Assembly: GCF_041886205.1 (NCBI RefSeq)
Contig: NZ_CP169029.1
Direction: 5' to 3' (one strand)
DNA: 64,000 bases
DNA from: Escherichia coli
GTDB lineage: Bacteria; Pseudomonadota; Gammaproteobacteria; Enterobacterales; Enterobacteriaceae
Below are positions 1,676 to 37,926 of this stretch, piece by piece. The position numbers were made by a program, and so were the translations under genes. Each line of letters starts with the position of its first letter. Position 1 is the first letter of the stretch. Under the pieces are notes generated by a model that had not been told where the DNA came from, made no database searches, and worked only from the letters and a program-made list of their open reading frames with translations.

Positions 1676-2293
1676 TTACACTTCCTCCGGATTAGCCAGA
1701 TAACCAGTGGTATCGCCGGTCGGGCGGCTGTTGGCGTTAGGTTTGATAACGATATTGGGTTTTGTGAAATGCGCGCGCGGCAGTGGCGCGACGGCAGCAA
1801 GAGTGCCGTGCTTCTGGCGCAGCTCTTCAATTGGACCGAACTCAAGTGCACGCAGCGGGCAGGATTCGACACATATGGGTTGTTTCCCCTCGGCGACGCG
1901 CGAATAACAACCATCGCACTTCGTCATGTGCCCTTTTTCAGCATTGTACTGTGGCGCGCCGTACGGACAAGCCATGTGGCAGTAGCGGCAGCCGATACAA
2001 ACATCTTCATCAACCACCACAAAGCCATCTTCACGCTTATGCATTGCGCCGCTGGGGCAGACTTTTGTACATGCGGGGTCATCGCAATGGTTACAGGAGA
2101 TGGAGAGATAATAAGCGAACACGTTCTGGTGCCAGACGCCATTATCTTCCTGCCAGTCGCCGCCAGCGTATTCATAAATACGGCGGAAACTGACTTCCGG
2201 GCCAAGATCTTTAAAATCTTTGCACGCCAGTTCGCAGGTTTTACAGCCAGTACAGCGGCTGGAATCGATAAAAAATCCATATTGTGTGGTCAT
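1676..2293 (-). CDS. ynfG: 4Fe-4S ferredoxin-type electron-transfer subunit (DmsB family)
   Basis: 205 aa with four Cys-rich Fe-S cluster motifs (CTGCKTCELAC, CNHCDDPAC, CIGCRYCHMAC, CDGC...C). Confidence 0.9.
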   Translation of the reverse strand: MTTQYGFFIDSSRCTGCKTCELACKDFKDLGPEVSFRRIYEYAGGDWQEDNGVWHQNVFAYYLSISCNHCDDPACTKVCPSGAMHKREDGFVVVDEDVCIGCRYCHMACPYGAPQYNAEKGHMTKCDGCYSRVAEGKQPICVESCPLRALEFGPIEELRQKHGTLAAVAPLPRAHFTKPNIVIKPNANSRPTGDTTGYLANPEEV

Positions 2294-2303
2294 GGGCTAC
2301 TCC

Positions 2304-4727
2304 TTAAACCTTTTCGATCTGGACAAGATTGCTGTGCGACGGGTTTCCCTTTGCCAGCGGTGAAGGGCGGTGAGAGGTCAGAATATTGATACTGCCGCCG
2401 TGATCGACCCGGTCACCAAACATATCCGCTTTAAGCCACGCACCTTGCCCGATGGCGGTAACGCCAGGCAGAATACGCGGAGTCACTTTTGCGGCAATCA
2501 GCATTTCTCCATTATTGTTAAATACCCGCACGGTATCGCCATGACGGATACCGCGTGCCTGAGCATCAATGGGGTTGATCCACACCTCTTGTGGGCAGGC
2601 CTGCTGTAACACATCAATATTGCCGTAGCTGGAGTGGGTACGCGCTTTGTAATGGAAGCCCGTTAACTGCAGTGGATAGGTTTTCCGCAGGGGATCGTCC
2701 CAGCCATCAAAACCTGGGGTATACGCAGGAAGGGGATGAATAATTTCATCTTTTTTCAATTCCCAGGTATCTGCAATCTTCGCCAGTCGTTCAGAATAAA
2801 TTTCGATTTTCCCCGAAGGTGTTTTCAACGGGTTTGCCTGTGGATCTTCACGGAATGCGCGGAAAGCGACGTAGTGTTCTTCCGGGCATTTTTTCTTAAA
2901 GATCCCGGTCGTTTTCATCTCCTCGTAGTCGGGCATCTCAGGGTTACGTTCCTTCGTTTTCGCATGGAGATATTTGATCCATTCATGCTGACTGCGACCT
3001 TCAGTAAAGGTTTGATAAACGTCTGGTCCTAAGCGTTTGGCGACTTCACTCAGCATCCAGTAGATGGGTTTGCGTTCAAATTTTGCTGAGGTTGCGGGTT
3101 GGGCGAGGATCACATAGCCCATATTCCCTGCAGATTCATGAGAGATAAGGTCTTCTTGCTCTGTTGGCATCAGGTCGGGCAACAGGATATCGCAATACTT
3201 AGCCGAGGCCGTCATGAAGTGGTCAATGCCAACAATCATCTCGCACTTGCTGTCATCCTGAAGCACCTCATGGGTGTGATTGATGTCGCCATGTTGATTG
3301 ATCAATGTGTTACTGGCGTAGCACCATAAAAACTTGATGGGGACATCCAGTTTTTCTTTTCCACGAACACCATCACGGGTCGCGGTCATTTCCGTACCAT
3401 GGTCGATGGCATCTGTCCATGTAAAGACGGAAATCTGCGTTTTAACAGGATTCTCGAGCATCGGGAACCATTCTACCCCCAGATCCCAGCTACCTTCGCG
3501 TACGCCTGAGTTGCCGCCGTTTATGCCGACGTTGCCGGTGAGAACGGAAAGCATGGCAATAGCGCGGGATGTTTGCTCGCCGTTGGAATGTCGTTGTGGC
3601 CCCCAACCCTGACAAATATAAGCAGGTTTTGCTGAACCGATCTCTCGTGCCAACTGGATAATTTTTTCTGCCGGGATGCTGGTGATTTTTGCTGCCCATT
3701 CCGGCGTTTTAGCTATGCCGTCAGGCCCTTCGCCCAGAATATAGGCTTTATAATGCGCGTTACGTGGTGCGTTGGCGGGCAGCGTTTTTTCATCGTAACC
3801 AACACAATATTTGTCGAGAAATGGCTGATCGACCATGTTTTCAGTAATCAGTACCCAGGCAATCGCACAGGCCAGTGCGCCATCGGTGCCAGGGCGAATG
3901 GGCAGCCATTCATCTTCACGCCCGGCAGCAGTGTCGTTATAACGTGGATCGATGACGATCATGCGTGCGTTTGAACGTTCGCGGGCTTGCTCGACGTAGT
4001 AAGTGACACCACCGCCGCTCATCCGCGTTTCTGCCGGGTTATTTCCGAACATAACGACCAGTTTCGTATTGGCGATATCATCCGGGCTGTTGCCATCATT
4101 GGCACCGAACATATAACTCATTGCGGCACTGATCTGTGCGGTACTGTAGCTGCCATAGCGACTGAGAAAACCACCGCAAGAGTTCATCAGACGGTACGGG
4201 ACGTTTGAGTTGGTGATGTTTCCGCCATCTACACCTGTTCCGTACAGGACATGTACAGCCTCATTGCCGTAATCTTTTAGGATCCGCCGAAGATTATCAC
4301 TGATGGTATCCAGGGCTTCGTCCCAACTTATCCGTTCAAATTTACCTTCACCGCGCTTGCCGACGCGCTTCATGGGATATTTCAACCTATCAGGATGATT
4401 CATCCGTCGGCGGATAGAGCGCCCGCGTAAACACGCGCGAACCTGATGATTACCGTAGACGTCGTCACCTGTCGTATCAGACTCCACCCAGTACACGGTG
4501 TCATCTTTCACATGCAAACGTAACAGACAGCGGCTCCCGCAGTTAACGGTGCAGGAACTCCAGACCGCTTTCTCTTCTACCGGAACCTCTGCCGCCCGAA
4601 CCATTTGGGAAAATGGCAGAGTGAAAGCACTGCTTGCCAGCGCGAGACTGCCAAGTGCGGAGGTTTTCATCAGACTTCTACGGCTGATTTCAGCCTTCAT
4701 GAGCGCCTCTGTGGTATGGATTTTCAT
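2304..4727 (-). CDS. ynfF: Tat-exported molybdopterin oxidoreductase catalytic subunit (DmsA paralogue)
   Basis: 807 aa; twin-arginine signal SRRSLMK; N-terminal Cys cluster CTVNCGSRC; large MopB-type protein. Confidence 0.9.
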   Translation of the reverse strand: MKIHTTEALMKAEISRRSLMKTSALGSLALASSAFTLPFSQMVRAAEVPVEEKAVWSSCTVNCGSRCLLRLHVKDDTVYWVESDTTGDDVYGNHQVRACLRGRSIRRRMNHPDRLKYPMKRVGKRGEGKFERISWDEALDTISDNLRRILKDYGNEAVHVLYGTGVDGGNITNSNVPYRLMNSCGGFLSRYGSYSTAQISAAMSYMFGANDGNSPDDIANTKLVVMFGNNPAETRMSGGGVTYYVEQARERSNARMIVIDPRYNDTAAGREDEWLPIRPGTDGALACAIAWVLITENMVDQPFLDKYCVGYDEKTLPANAPRNAHYKAYILGEGPDGIAKTPEWAAKITSIPAEKIIQLAREIGSAKPAYICQGWGPQRHSNGEQTSRAIAMLSVLTGNVGINGGNSGVREGSWDLGVEWFPMLENPVKTQISVFTWTDAIDHGTEMTATRDGVRGKEKLDVPIKFLWCYASNTLINQHGDINHTHEVLQDDSKCEMIVGIDHFMTASAKYCDILLPDLMPTEQEDLISHESAGNMGYVILAQPATSAKFERKPIYWMLSEVAKRLGPDVYQTFTEGRSQHEWIKYLHAKTKERNPEMPDYEEMKTTGIFKKKCPEEHYVAFRAFREDPQANPLKTPSGKIEIYSERLAKIADTWELKKDEIIHPLPAYTPGFDGWDDPLRKTYPLQLTGFHYKARTHSSYGNIDVLQQACPQEVWINPIDAQARGIRHGDTVRVFNNNGEMLIAAKVTPRILPGVTAIGQGAWLKADMFGDRVDHGGSINILTSHRPSPLAKGNPSHSNLVQIEKV

Positions 4728-12443: not shown

Positions 12444-12536
12444 ATGACAATAGAAAAACACGAAAGAAGCACTAAGGATTTGGTGAAAGCAGCAGTATCG
12501 GGATGGCTGGGCACTGCGCTTGAATTTATGGATTTC
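12444..12536 (+). pseudogene. ydfJ: 5' fragment of ydfJ (MFS transporter) cut by prophage insertion
   Basis: MTIEKHERSTKDLVKAAVSGWLGTALEFMDF then diverges; the rest of the protein resumes in frame at 36643 (MDFQLYSLGAA...). Confidence 0.7.
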
Positions 12537-12573
12537 AAGAGTCATACGTGTCAACTATTTGATAAATATTAAA

Positions 12574-13869
12574 TTAATTTTTCATTGCTTCGTTATGGGG
12601 CATGGTTGGGGCAAACTCGCTTAACTGTGTATTTAACAAAGCTACCTGTGCATTATTGTTTTCAGACATCCATTTTCCGTATACCTGAAATACCATTTGC
12701 GCATCTGCATGGCCCATCTGGTTTGCTATAAATGCCGGGTTAGCACCAGCTGTCAGCGACCAGCAGGCATAAGTATGTCTCGACTGATATGATTTTCGAT
12801 GGCGGAGTCCGGCACGTTTTATCGCTGCGTCCCACATCTGCCTTATTGAGTCAACGGTAAAATGGTCACCATAATTTTTTACTCTCGCTGACACTTCAGG
12901 TTGAAAAACAAAGGTGCATTTATGTTTTTCTGTTCTGCCATACTCTCTGAGGTGAACATCAATGATATGCTCTTTGCTCAGTCTCGTTAATGTCATCTGA
13001 CTCCGGAGAGCGTCGATTGCTGGCTTAATAAGATGAATGACCCGATTGGTTCCCGCCTGTGTTTTTGGGACCGTGAAACGGTCTTTTGCTAAATTTCTCC
13101 TGATCATCATTGTTCCATTTTTCAGATCTATGTCCTCCCATCCAAGTGCACACAGCTCACCAGGGCGAACGCCAGTATAAACAGAAACACACCATAAATT
13201 TTTGGCTTGCTGATTTCTGCACGCATCGATAAGACGGATGAATTCCTCCCGCGAAAGAGGATCCGGAATGGTTCTTGATTCCTTTAATGGCGAGATCCCC
13301 TTAAACGGGTTATCTGCCAGGTAACCGTTATCAACACCAAACTGGAACACGGCGTTAAGATTTGTCATGTAATTATTTACAGTTACAGCCGATCTCCCTG
13401 GTTGTGTAACAATATAGTTACTTTTGGGGATCTGGTATCCAGTCAGTAGCTCTTTACGAACCTCCAGTAATTTTTCTTTATTAATCGATGAGGCAAGATT
13501 TTTTTCACCGATTATGCTCAGGATATTTTTGATGACGGCACGGTATGTGTTGAGTGATGTTTTGGCGACTTCAGTTTCTTTCAGTGCCAGAAATTTTTCA
13601 GCCAGTTCTTTTATGGTTAAATCTTGTCGGGCCTCACCAAATTTTTCCAGATTGCGTGAGGAGGGAAACTGTTTTGCATAGTCGAAAACACCAGTTTTTA
13701 TTGCGTAACAAACAGAGGAGCGTAGTTCACCTGCAACGCGCCTGTTTTTTGCTGTGTCAGGAACCCCCAGATTTTCCCTGACTCTTACGCCTTTATAAAC
13801 AAACCAGATACGTAATTTCCCTCCATGGTTTTCCACGCCTGTCGGATATTTCATTTCAACTTCTCTCAT
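12574..13869 (-). CDS. phage tyrosine integrase
   Basis: 431 aa; C-terminal catalytic region with R...HxxR...Y signature (RHTYACWSL...); located at the att junction. Confidence 0.9.
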   Translation of the reverse strand: MREVEMKYPTGVENHGGKLRIWFVYKGVRVRENLGVPDTAKNRRVAGELRSSVCYAIKTGVFDYAKQFPSSRNLEKFGEARQDLTIKELAEKFLALKETEVAKTSLNTYRAVIKNILSIIGEKNLASSINKEKLLEVRKELLTGYQIPKSNYIVTQPGRSAVTVNNYMTNLNAVFQFGVDNGYLADNPFKGISPLKESRTIPDPLSREEFIRLIDACRNQQAKNLWCVSVYTGVRPGELCALGWEDIDLKNGTMMIRRNLAKDRFTVPKTQAGTNRVIHLIKPAIDALRSQMTLTRLSKEHIIDVHLREYGRTEKHKCTFVFQPEVSARVKNYGDHFTVDSIRQMWDAAIKRAGLRHRKSYQSRHTYACWSLTAGANPAFIANQMGHADAQMVFQVYGKWMSENNNAQVALLNTQLSEFAPTMPHNEAMKN

Positions 13870-34043: not shown

Positions 34044-34618
34044 TGGCATTCAGAATGAGTGAACAACCACAGACCATAAAAATTTATAATCTGCTGGCCG
34101 GAACTAATGAATTTATTGGTGAAGGTGACGCATATATTCCGCCTCATACAGGTCTGCCAGCAAACAGTACCGATATTGCACCGCCAGATATTCCGGCAGG
34201 CTTCGTGGCTGTTTTCAACAGTGATGAGGCATCGTGGCATCTCGTTGAAGATCATCGGGGAAAAACCGTCTATGACGTGGCTTCCGGCGACGCGTTATTT
34301 ATTTCTGAACTCGGTCCGTTACCGGAAAATGTTACCTGGTTATCGCCGGAAGGGGAGTTTCAGAAGTGGAACGGCACAGCCTGGGTGAAGGATACGGAAG
34401 CAGAAAAACTGTTCCGGATCCGGGAGGCGGAAGAAACAAAAAACAACCTGATGCAGGTAGCCAGTGAGCATATTGCGCCGCTTCAGGATGCTGCAGATCT
34501 GGAAATTGCAACGGAGGAAGAAATCTCGTTGCTGGAAGCATGGAAAAAGTATCGGGTATTGCTGAACCGTGTTGATACGTCAACTGCACAGGATATTGAA
34601 TGGCCAGCACTGCCGTAG
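34043..34618 (+). CDS. tail fibre assembly protein Tfa
   Basis: 191 aa; start overlaps the stf stop; typical Tfa N-terminus ([21 protein letters not shown]). Confidence 0.8.
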
Positions 34619-34715
34619 GGTAAAACATATAAATTCTATAATTAGATGTATCTTTCCATTTACGGCAAGGAAGGGGGCTTGGAACACGTAAAGCATCTCA
34701 CACCGAGATTATTTT

Positions 34716-35306
34716 TTATATGTCAGGTGTCTGAAGTTTTGCTTTGGCTCTTAAAATGGTTTGCCGCGAGGTTTTGAATTCCCGGGCAATGGCACTTATA
34801 CTTACACCTGACTTAATTCGTTCGAATACCACCTGTTTCTGTTCTTCATTTAACACAGGTGGTCGACCAAAACGTTTCCCTGCGCCGCGGGCTCTTACTA
34901 TCCCGGAATGAGTGCGTTCAAGTAAAAGGTCTCGTTCAAATTCAGCGACTGCTGAAATTACTTGCATCATCATTTTTCCTGTTGGACTGGTCAGGTCAAT
35001 GCCACCCAATGCTAAGCAATGCACTCTGATACCTGTTTCGGTCAGTTGTTCCACTGTTTTCCTGATATCCATTGCATTACAACCAAGGCGATCCAGTTTT
35101 GTCACAATCAATTGATCACCACATTTCAGGCGAGCAAGCAACCGGTTAAAACCAGGACGCTCACTGGTTGCTGCTGAGCCGCTAATGTGTTCTTCGATTA
35201 TTTGCTGAGGTTTGATTTTAAAACCTGCACTTTCGATTTCCCGGCGTTGATTTTCGGTGGTCTGATCCAGCGTTGATATCCGACAGTAAGCAAAAATTCG
35301 AGACAT
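34716..35306 (-). CDS. serine recombinase / DNA invertase (Pin/Gin/Hin family)
   Basis: 196 aa [20 protein letters not shown]... with catalytic Ser and C-terminal HTH. Confidence 0.9.
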
Positions 35307-35623
35307 AGTGAGACTCTATTCGAAATTGGTGTTCATATCATAATGCATCTCAGAAAATAATTATGATTATTTTTGTGCATATTTGTATGTACACGTTCGA
35401 AAATAAACGAATGCGTATGCAACCCCGTAATTTTTGGTGAGACCCAAAATCGATTTTGTGAAAAATGGCTTTAACTTGGTTTGTTTTTCGAGTTCCGGGC
35501 GGGCTCAAGGAAGAAGAATAGTGTTGCGTGTTATTTTAACCAGATTTCAAGTTGTTTGGACGTGGAAAAGTGGAGCAAAATGTTGTTAAAGTGGAAAAAT
35601 GATAAAAAAGTAAGTTTATTATA

Positions 35624-35857
35624 TTACATTTTACCATTTAAATTTTGGTTGTCTTTAAGAACTGATATCGCTGTTTGTAATAATTCTTTGTTATCCAGCC
35701 ATGATTTTTTCTTTATGTTTCCTTCAATGTAATCAAGCAATGTTCTGGTATTAATAGGTCTTCCCTGTTTTGCTACTTCCACTACAGCATCCCCTAGGAT
35801 AATTCTTACTTCAGGAAGCTGCGCAGGGAACCACTTAAGGGTGTCTTTTGATTTCAT
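35624..35857 (-). CDS. ydfK: YdfK/YnaE-family small protein
   Basis: 77 aa from MKSKDTLKWFPAQLPEVRIILGD...; last gene before the right junction. Confidence 0.75.
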   Translation of the reverse strand: MKSKDTLKWFPAQLPEVRIILGDAVVEVAKQGRPINTRTLLDYIEGNIKKKSWLDNKELLQTAISVLKDNQNLNGKM

Positions 35858-36642
35858 GAAGATATTCCTTAAAATATTATTGATTTTCATTGCGATATTG
35901 TATGTCTGATTCAGGATATGTTGACTTATACATCGGTTTTGTCTGGGTTATTGGATATGCCAATCCCTAATTTTATTAGGGCATGACTAAAAATGCTGAA
36001 TATGATAAGGAGAGAAGTGATTATCAGTATGCTGTTCATATAGCCTCGAATTAGTAATGTGTTATATATGATATAGTTGACAATTTTTATCTTGGGTGTT
36101 TTTAAAGTTCGTAGATAAACATTGTCGTTTCAGGTATACAGGAATGCTAGCAGGTGGCAGCAAAAATCAGGCGGTTTATGGCGCAAGCTGAAGCGGCAAC
36201 TGCAAACTATCTTATGCAGAGACTCTACACGGATTGGGTTTAAAAGTATACATAGATAACAGTTTTTATCTGAAAAAGAAAAATATCAAGGTGATATAGC
36301 CTATATGCCTTTGATGCGGAGGAATGACTGTGATGGGAGTGATGTATCTGAATAGTTGAAAAAACGCAGACACGCCTTATGCAAGAACGTGCTGCGGTTG
36401 GCTGGTAAATTTTTCGATAGTGTGAGTATTGAATGATTTCCAGCCGTTCTTGATTTTACGCATAAATCCATGAAAAAACTACTTATCTGTTGGGGAGTTT
36501 TTTTGGGGCATATATGGGACAGAAATAGGCCCCAGATAGACACTGAGATCGAACTTAGGATGCTTTTTAAAAAATGCAACTATCTGAAAAAACCTAGAAA
36601 ACGCCAAGGAAACCACAGGATGGGAAAAAACACCTGTGAATT

Positions 36643-37926
36643 ATGGATTTCCAGTTATATTCGCTCGGCGCAGCGTTAGTGTTTCATGAAATATTTTTTC
36701 CTGAATCATCAACGGCAATGGCGTTAATTCTGGCAATGGGAACCTACGGTGCAGGTTATGTGGCGCGTATTGTCGGAGCATTTATTTTCGGCAAAATGGG
36801 CGACAGAATAGGGCGTAAAAAAGTGCTCTTTATTACCATCACCATGATGGGGATCTGTACTACCTTAATTGGTGTGCTGCCGACCTATGCACAAATTGGT
36901 GTTTTTGCACCCATCTTGCTGGTGACGCTGCGTATTATTCAGGGGTTGGGTGCAGGTGCGGAAATTTCCGGTGCCGGTACGATGCTGGCGGAATATGCGC
37001 CAAAAGGTAAGCGCGGAATTATCTCCTCATTTGTGGCTATGGGAACTAACTGCGGAACCTTGAGCGCAACGGCAATCTGGGCCTTTATGTTCTTCATTCT
37101 CAGTAAAGAGGAACTGCTGGCGTGGGGATGGCGTATACCGTTCCTGGCGAGCGTTGTCGTGATGGTCTTTGCTATCTCGTTACGTATGAATCTGAAAGAA
37201 AGCCCGGTCTTTGAGAAGGTTAATGACAGCAACCAACCGACAGCAAAACCTGCACCTGCTGGTAGCATGTTCCAGAGCAAATCCTTCTGGCTGGCAACAG
37301 GGCTGCGTTTTGGTCAGGCGGGTAACTCCGGGTTAATTCAGACTTTCCTTGCAGGCTATTTAGTGCAGACGTTATTGTTTAACAAAGCAATTCCAACAGA
37401 TGCATTGATGATTAGTTCGATTCTCGGCTTTATGACCATTCCGTTCCTTGGTTGGTTATCCGATAAAATTGGTCGCCGGATCCCGTATATTATTATGAAT
37501 ACCTCCGCGATTGTGCTGGCATGGCCAATGCTTTCTATCATCGTAGATAAAAGCTATGCCCCGAGCACCATTATGGTTGCACTGATTGTGATTCATAACT
37601 GTGCGGTGCTGGGATTATTTGCTCTGGAAAACATTACCATGGCAGAAATGTTCGGCTGTAAAAACCGCTTTACCCGGATGGCTATTTCTAAAGAAATTGG
37701 TGGTCTTATCGCTTCCGGTTTTGGTCCTATCCTGGCGGGTATTTTCTGCACCATGACGGAATCCTGGTATCCGATCGCCATTATGATCATGGCATATTCA
37801 GTGATTGGTTTAATCTCTGCGCTGAAAATGCCAGAGGTGAAAGACCGTGATTTAAGTGCGCTGGAAGACGCTGCGGAAGATCAACCGCGTGTTGTAAGAG
37901 CTGCGCAACCTTCCAGAAGTCTGTAA
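36643..37926 (+). pseudogene. ydfJ: 3' portion of ydfJ (MFS transporter), 5'-truncated by the prophage
   Basis: 427 aa MFS protein lacking about the first 30 aa and first TM helix, which are at 12444-12536. Confidence 0.7.

Follow-up and report, generated by a model that had tools for sequence, protein, structure and literature searches.

Features of the AT-rich right-hand end of a Qin-type prophage in the ydfJ gene of Escherichia coli

What, if anything, is encoded in the AT-rich DNA that separates ydfK from the right-hand attachment site of a prophage in ydfJ? The window considered here, a 64 000 nt stretch of the E. coli chromosome (contig NZ_CP169029.1), runs from ynfG to rspB, through the prophage and the truncated ydfJ′, and on from ydfI. 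Positions 35858–36640 had been described from their sequence as AT-rich, gene-poor DNA next to attR, and the description of their composition and location stands: G+C content is 36.8 %, which falls at the 4.5th percentile of 783-bp windows (whole window, 47.7 %; prophage, 45.9 %), annotated coding sequence accounts for 114 of the 783 bp, and the 11-bp core of attR adjoins the stretch, in agreement with the boundary of Qin in K-12 MG1655, which corresponds to window position 36651. It had further been suggested that the stretch is an empty or decayed slot for cargo, possibly holding a promoter or sRNA reading into ydfJ. We instead consider it, with a probability of roughly 85 %, to be the normal right-hand end of a Qin-type lambdoid prophage in ydfJ, made up of four ordinary minus-strand modules (Table 1). 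All signals found in the stretch lie on the minus strand, and are directed away from ydfJ. Over the surrounding 1.6 kb, identity is 99.9 % to strain wlxctx60 and 98.75 % to K-12 MG1655, where the counterpart is the left end of the cryptic prophage Qin, with pinQ, ydfK, ynfT and a truncated ydfJ annotated.

Table 1. Features of the prophage end and its integrase (window coordinates)
Feature	Position	Strand	Description
Integrase (tyrosine)	12574–13869	−	Full-length, 431 aa; arm-binding and catalytic domains; stop codon 38 bp from attL core
ydfK	35624–35857	−	77 aa, cold-shock gene, just outside the stretch; annotated in K-12 and in the best-matching genome
ynfT–ydfK spacer	35858–35925	−	68 nt; ydfK RBS AAGGA at 35866–35870
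ynfT	35926–36039	−	37-aa hydrophobic small protein, YnaM/YnfT family; RBS GAGG at 36044–36047
Untranslated leader	36040–36244	−	Between candidate promoter and ynfT, placement relative to promoter putative; upstream part of the described ydfK 5′ UTR
Promoter-like site	36245–36274	−	TTCAGA-18-TATACT, from consensus scan; candidate ynfT–ydfK promoter
Predicted intrinsic-terminator hairpin	36359–36396	−	CGCAGCACG...CGTGTCTGCG, then T6
Former dinI 3′ UTR	36397–36461	−	Precedes the hairpin
dinI-like stump	36462–36511	−	10-codon ORF remnant (36479–36511) and diverged 3′ end; gene body of ~200 bp gone
P arm of attP	36491–36640	−	Arm-type motif pair, inverted copy, IHF-like repeat, inverted repeat beside core
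attR core	36641–36651		TTATGGATTTC; crossover identity with attL 12526–12536; the truncated ydfJ ORF begins at the ATG within it

The ynfT–ydfK module

The stretch had been credited with only weak, overlapping ORFs that lack an RBS, a view that is contradicted by ynfT. This minus-strand ORF carries a GAGG motif 5–8 nt upstream of its ATG, and matches both Pfam PF23676 over residues 1–37 (96.2 bits; cut-off 27) and NCBIfam NF041477 (63.9 bits; cut-off 35). Two other ORFs, 36470–36679 (plus strand, 69 aa) and 36301–36579 (minus strand, 92 aa), have no Pfam match. The gene is annotated in K-12 MG1655. Chromosomal epitope tagging has identified a set of small proteins that includes the identical K-12 protein, then named YnfQ, and a ribosome-profiling screen also scored it as positive (PMC6001520). 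Its Rac paralogue, YnaM, has the same 37-aa sequence (PMC6001520). All 17 distinct homologous loci retain an intact ORF, always approximately 70 nt upstream of ydfK; these sequences extend to Salmonella phages, whose copies show ~80 % nucleotide identity, with that of phage 118970_sal3 differing at 12 synonymous and 8 non-synonymous codons. The Rac prophage end of K-12 (pinR, ynaE, ynaM, then ttcC′) is paralogous, with 98 % identity from pin to window position 36401, spanning pin, ydfK/ynaE, ynfT/ynaM, the leader and the hairpin. Past the hairpin the two ends differ: where the window has the dinI stump and a P arm specific to ydfJ, Rac carries an att arm of its own, belonging to the ttcA site.

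The candidate promoter for ynfT–ydfK matches the consensus at 9 of 12 positions, and its hexamers are unchanged in all aligned variants, including relatives of 89–93 % identity, in which the next 100 bp carry ~17 substitutions. Shuffled sequence yields at least as many promoter-like sites as the region as a whole. Peaks of RNA polymerase binding in vitro have been reported within the ydfI–ydfK spacer (PMC5493296); by a coordinate conversion made here, these map to about 36212–36314. The exact promoter and start site given for ynfT–ydfK, and with them the extent of the leader, are best described as putative. An alternative promoter directly upstream of ynfT, in the Salmonella-conserved block at ~36045–36095, was considered and rejected, with no acceptable −35/−10 spacing visible by eye and none returned by the scanner. 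The predicted arrangement would be that of a self-contained accessory operon, with a promoter near 36245–36274, a leader of ~200 nt, ynfT and then ydfK.

With regard to the leader, the genome paper on strain ER2796 (PMC4444293), citing Raghavan, Sage and Ochman (2011), describes the UTR upstream of ydfK as an RNA thermosensor, and infers the same for that of ynaE. Bilusic et al. list '5′ UTR-ydfK' and 'ttcC-ynaE' RNAs amongst Hfq-bound leader RNAs (PMC4152368), prematurely terminated leader transcripts of ydfK and ynaE feature in earlier reports summarized in PMC5089854, and YdfK has been described as strongly up-regulated at low temperature (PMC10654059). Going by this literature, the leader RNA would make ydfK temperature-responsive. 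Folding of the leader is no better than that of shuffled sequence (z = −0.6 and −1.5), and a cmscan of 34500–37500 on both strands (E ≤ 1; RF01766 included) returned no leader family from Rfam. That scan gave a match to CssrB (RF02799) of 23.8 bits against a threshold of 76, in which the hairpin alone aligns and on the opposite strand, as well as a mir-263 match far below threshold. It also gave a partial match to IS009 of 81 bits (gathering threshold 117) at 34500–34584 (plus strand), which is clipped at the edge of the searched stretch and falls inside the 3′ end of the tail-fibre assembly gene tfaQ. Searches with the ydfK protein gave no Pfam or NCBIfam match, even to cold-shock-domain models. 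Leaders of the cspA type (RF01766) are comparable in that a long 5′ leader, cited as temperature-sensing, precedes a cold-induced gene; they differ in that the ydfK leader has no Rfam match and contains a translated gene of 37 codons.

It is conceivable, although we consider it rather unlikely, that the published 'non-coding' ydfK leader is actually translated, with translation of ynfT forming part of the cold response of ydfK. If so, the element would be a leader-peptide-coupled thermosensor and not a purely structural one. The idea, suggested by a single-sequence fold, that an anti-SD CUCCUU within ynfT masks the ydfK RBS was discarded, as the anti-SD is not kept in phage 2H10 or the Salmonella phages, and is absent from the consensus fold. 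The ATG of an 88-aa, extended form of ydfK is absent from the Salmonella-phage homologues. The ynfT–ydfK spacer also holds a Fur-box-like sequence at 35871–35888. For ydfK and ynaE, reported to be amongst Fur-activated genes, a cluster of Fur sites has been predicted, located for ydfK at +8 relative to its former annotated start (PMC2189734); the sequence seen here may equal that predicted cluster.

The attachment site and the split ydfJ gene

The core, TTATGGATTTC, is the sole 11-mer common to the two prophage junction regions, and these identical copies flank an otherwise continuous host gene. In a genome with an empty site, ydfJ is intact (455 aa) and sits beside rspB, with homology to the window beginning at 36637. 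In the window, the ydfJ promoter and the first ~28–31 codons are left at attL, ~24 kb from attR, and the ORF resumes to the right of attR. At attL, the promoter and N-terminal codons run into the P′ arm, generating a 42-aa stub ORF (12444–12572, plus strand). Its K-12 counterpart is YnfP (36 aa), which is included amongst experimentally identified small proteins (PMC6001520).

The integrase matches PF12167 (Arm-DNA-bind_2) at 82.9 bits, and a set of candidate binding sites can be discerned on either side of the core. Tandem arm-type motifs, TGGG(G/A)CA, occur at 36503–36521 (starts 36504 and 36515), 120–148 bp from the attR core, and a second pair is found at 12595–12613 (starts 12596 and 12607), 59–77 bp past the attL core and within the 3′ end of int. 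The motif has 10 occurrences in the 64 kb, four of which form these two 11-bp-spaced pairs, one per arm; an inverted near-copy lies at 36528. Of the four IHF-consensus matches in the window, one (12552) falls in the P′ arm, and the P arm carries an IHF-like repeat, CAACTATCTGAAAAA (36577–36591), with one mismatch to that P′ site. Adjoining the core is the inverted repeat CACAGG-N13-CCTGTG (36614–36638). When P arm, core and P′ arm are joined, the rebuilt attP of 296 nt is found contiguously at 98.6–99.7 % identity in the phages mEp460_ev081, Tritos, PhiR42_1 and HannyBb, whilst the P-arm segment is ~90 % identical to that of other ydfJ prophages. In Tritos and HannyBb, the two phages compared by annotation, the order is pin, ydfK, (ynfT), ~600 bp, attP, int, xis and exo, all on one strand. 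From these motifs we infer that Int and IHF bind at the arm sites, such that the integrase, together with IHF, would occupy the P arm (~36491–36651) for integration and excision.

This arrangement resembles attP of lambda, where the 3′ end of int likewise adjoins the core, an IHF site lies in P′, and the P′-side arm sites overlap the end of int. The P-side arm-type sites are found 120–148 bp from the core here, compared with ~90–140 bp in lambda; no sequence similarity between the two was seen, and the arm motif differs. Although the integrase is intact, the prophage measures ~24 kb, compared with 45–49 kb for related free phages, and it is therefore likely to be defective.

Joining of the arms in attP also creates a near-consensus sigma-70 promoter-like site, TTGACA-18-CATAAT (11 of 12 positions), on the int-transcribed strand, with its −35 at 12549–12554 and its −10 at 36640–36645. 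It is the sole site of such quality on both strands of the window and in the rebuilt attP, is split by integration, and is also present in L010 (4283–4312). A promoter assembled only in attP is nonetheless probably a by-product, because in LC727844.1, with a P′ arm of 88 % identity, the −35 is lost and the overlapping IHF consensus is kept.

A terminator-like hairpin at a mosaic joint

Between the P arm and the candidate ydfK promoter lies a hairpin with a G+C-rich stem of 9 bp interrupted by one bulge, to which three inner pairs are added (12 in all), and with T6 following directly. Its predicted fold has an energy of −15.2 kcal/mol (z = −2.1), and it was missed by a simple terminator scanner because of the bulge. 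The hairpin is present in every related context examined, namely Qin, Rac, a prophage near appY/ompT, a prfC-site prophage and free phages. Independent variants are few, and comprise a compensatory change of C–G to A–T (L004), a G–C to G–U change (K-12), and a partly disrupted form in L005; the T-run is degraded in L004 and L005, and intact in most copies.

Homology to the various relatives ends or begins close to this structure, reaching up to 36401–36413 for Rac-type sequences and up to 36483 for the prfC type, and starting from 36361–36365 for other ydfJ prophages. As the breakpoints of the module variants all fall beside the hairpin, the hairpin segment (36365–36401) is the sole segment common to all variants. 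These alignments mark it as the shared joint for past exchanges of ydfK modules, dinI modules and att arms amongst lambdoid prophages.

In Tritos and HannyBb, int, attP and the hairpin follow one another in this order along a single strand; integration has placed int at attL and the hairpin at attR of the prophage. In the free phage, the hairpin would stop the pL/int transcript once this has passed attP, and would occupy the position held in lambda by tI/sib, at which read-through transcripts form an RNase III site that destabilizes int mRNA. The analogy rests on a hairpin with T-run on the int-transcribed strand, located beyond the P arm and split from int by integration. It departs from lambda in distance, with the hairpin ~245–280 nt from the core and a gene relic in between, compared with ~140–190 nt in lambda, and no sequence similarity between the window hairpin and that of tI/sib was seen. 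By this analogy, the hairpin is a putative terminator of the int transcript; in the integrated state, it may now stop minus-strand transcription entering from the att side.

An alternative with some claim to attention, which we hold to be possible yet not the better account, is that the hairpin is only the fossil of a lost dinI-like gene and a mosaic joint, with no present role for int or ydfK. Where a gene lies upstream of it (dinI-like or, in strain S10, one for a SAM-dependent methyltransferase), that gene's stop codon precedes the hairpin, directly so in L005, L008 and L012 (dinI-like) and in L003 (methyltransferase); moreover, every module-variant breakpoint is within ~40 nt of it. Against this, the compensatory and G–U changes would keep the stem paired, the T-run survives in most copies, and the hairpin is the only strong terminator-like structure found between int and the ynfT–ydfK promoter on the transcribed strand of the free phages. 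A fossil or joint role and a terminator role are, however, compatible, and both can hold together.

Cargo in the arm and transcription into ydfJ

Beyond the hairpin and the former 3′ UTR lies the remnant of a dinI-like gene. A full gene of 80–82 aa occupies the same position in L005 (EHEC-type, in ydfJ), L008 (prfC-site prophage) and L012 (phage 2H10). Alignment with these three reveals that, in the window and in L004, ~200 bp of coding sequence are absent between a retained upstream flank and a retained 3′ UTR; thus, no DinI-family ORF of ~80 aa is intact here, and only ~50 bp of flanks are left. This is evidence that the dinI-like gene has been lost from the lineage. Prophage dinI-like genes beside att (2H10 gp27; the EHEC ydfJ prophage) are found on the same strand and, as here, in the interval from attP to the hairpin; they share their 3′ UTR and terminator hairpin with the window, in which the coding body is gone. 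The former 3′ UTR holds the sequence TTGAATGATTTCCAG (36431–36445), which looks like the core together with host-side TTATGGATTTCCAG. A Stx2a phage record, LC727844.1 (L044, ~300–380), has the hairpin and dinI 3′ UTR joined straight to the core, P′ arm and int, with no P arm, for which recombination at a secondary att-like site is one possible explanation.

That this arm can carry variable cargo, as had been proposed, is evident from relatives. L005 (NZ_CP030767.1) has three DUF1076 (NleG-like) genes in addition to its dinI-like gene in the same arm (1943–4347), another relative has one hypothetical gene, and at other att sites the ydfK module is followed by the methyltransferase gene of strain S10 or by a dinI-like gene. 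The EHEC-type prophage (L005/L043) has a truncated integrase, and its annotated interval contains no attL, rspA or rspB, which have apparently been deleted. The ynfT–ydfK pair is itself cargo of the present lineage. It may be likened to the 'moron' cargo of the lambda b region, in that it lies between tail-fibre genes and attP, with its own promoter-like site and a predicted terminator upstream, and is present in several unrelated prophage backbones; moron is used here as a description and not as a family.

Whether the arm is empty or decayed in the window can thus be answered in two parts: decay is apparent for the dinI-like gene only, and the stretch is not empty, as it contains ynfT, the candidate ydfK promoter with its leader, the predicted terminator and the P arm of attP. 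We therefore regard it as highly improbable that the stretch is a vacated cargo slot, filled by non-functional DNA after loss of accessory genes. The loss of the dinI-like gene, the cargo in the same arm of other prophages, and the AT-richness and low coding density would fit such a reading; however, the relic amounts to only ~50 bp, the K-12 YnfT protein has been detected, the leader has a published function, and attP arm sites are present. In addition, the whole stretch is kept at 97.5–99 % in free, presumably viable phages, running straight into attP, int and xis, and the same spacer without inserted genes is found in 2,011 of 5,426 complete E. coli genomes as well as in four free lambdoid phages, which is the finding that the original prediction had named as speaking against it. 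The idea of an empty slot is, accordingly, largely refuted already.

Finally, an outward-facing promoter or sRNA that crosses attR and drives the truncated ydfJ is extremely unlikely: the ORF (36643–37926), whose start would happen to be the ATG of the attR core, has lost its own promoter to attL and is still annotated as a gene in K-12, so any expression would need a phage-side promoter, but the consensus scan, which may miss weak or non-sigma-70 promoters, found no plus-strand promoter-like or terminator-like site from 35876 to ydfJ (35876–36651), no Shine–Dalgarno sequence precedes the ATG at 36643, many RefSeq genomes call ydfJ here a pseudogene without N-terminus, the K-12 interval has no RNA gene in RefSeq, and the reported RNA is the ydfK leader, which runs in the opposite direction.

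Viewed as the ordinary end of a Qin-type prophage, the stretch has contents that are mostly described before. Mildly new are the base-level map of a Qin-type attP (core, arm-site pairs and IHF site), the remnant of a dinI-like gene, and the identification of the hairpin as a mosaic joint. There is no case for pursuing the stretch as a hotspot for defence or other cargo, or as a source of transcription into ydfJ. The main value of the analysis is one of correction, in that apparently empty prophage DNA is accounted for by a gene for a small protein, a regulatory leader, a predicted terminator and one arm of the attachment site.
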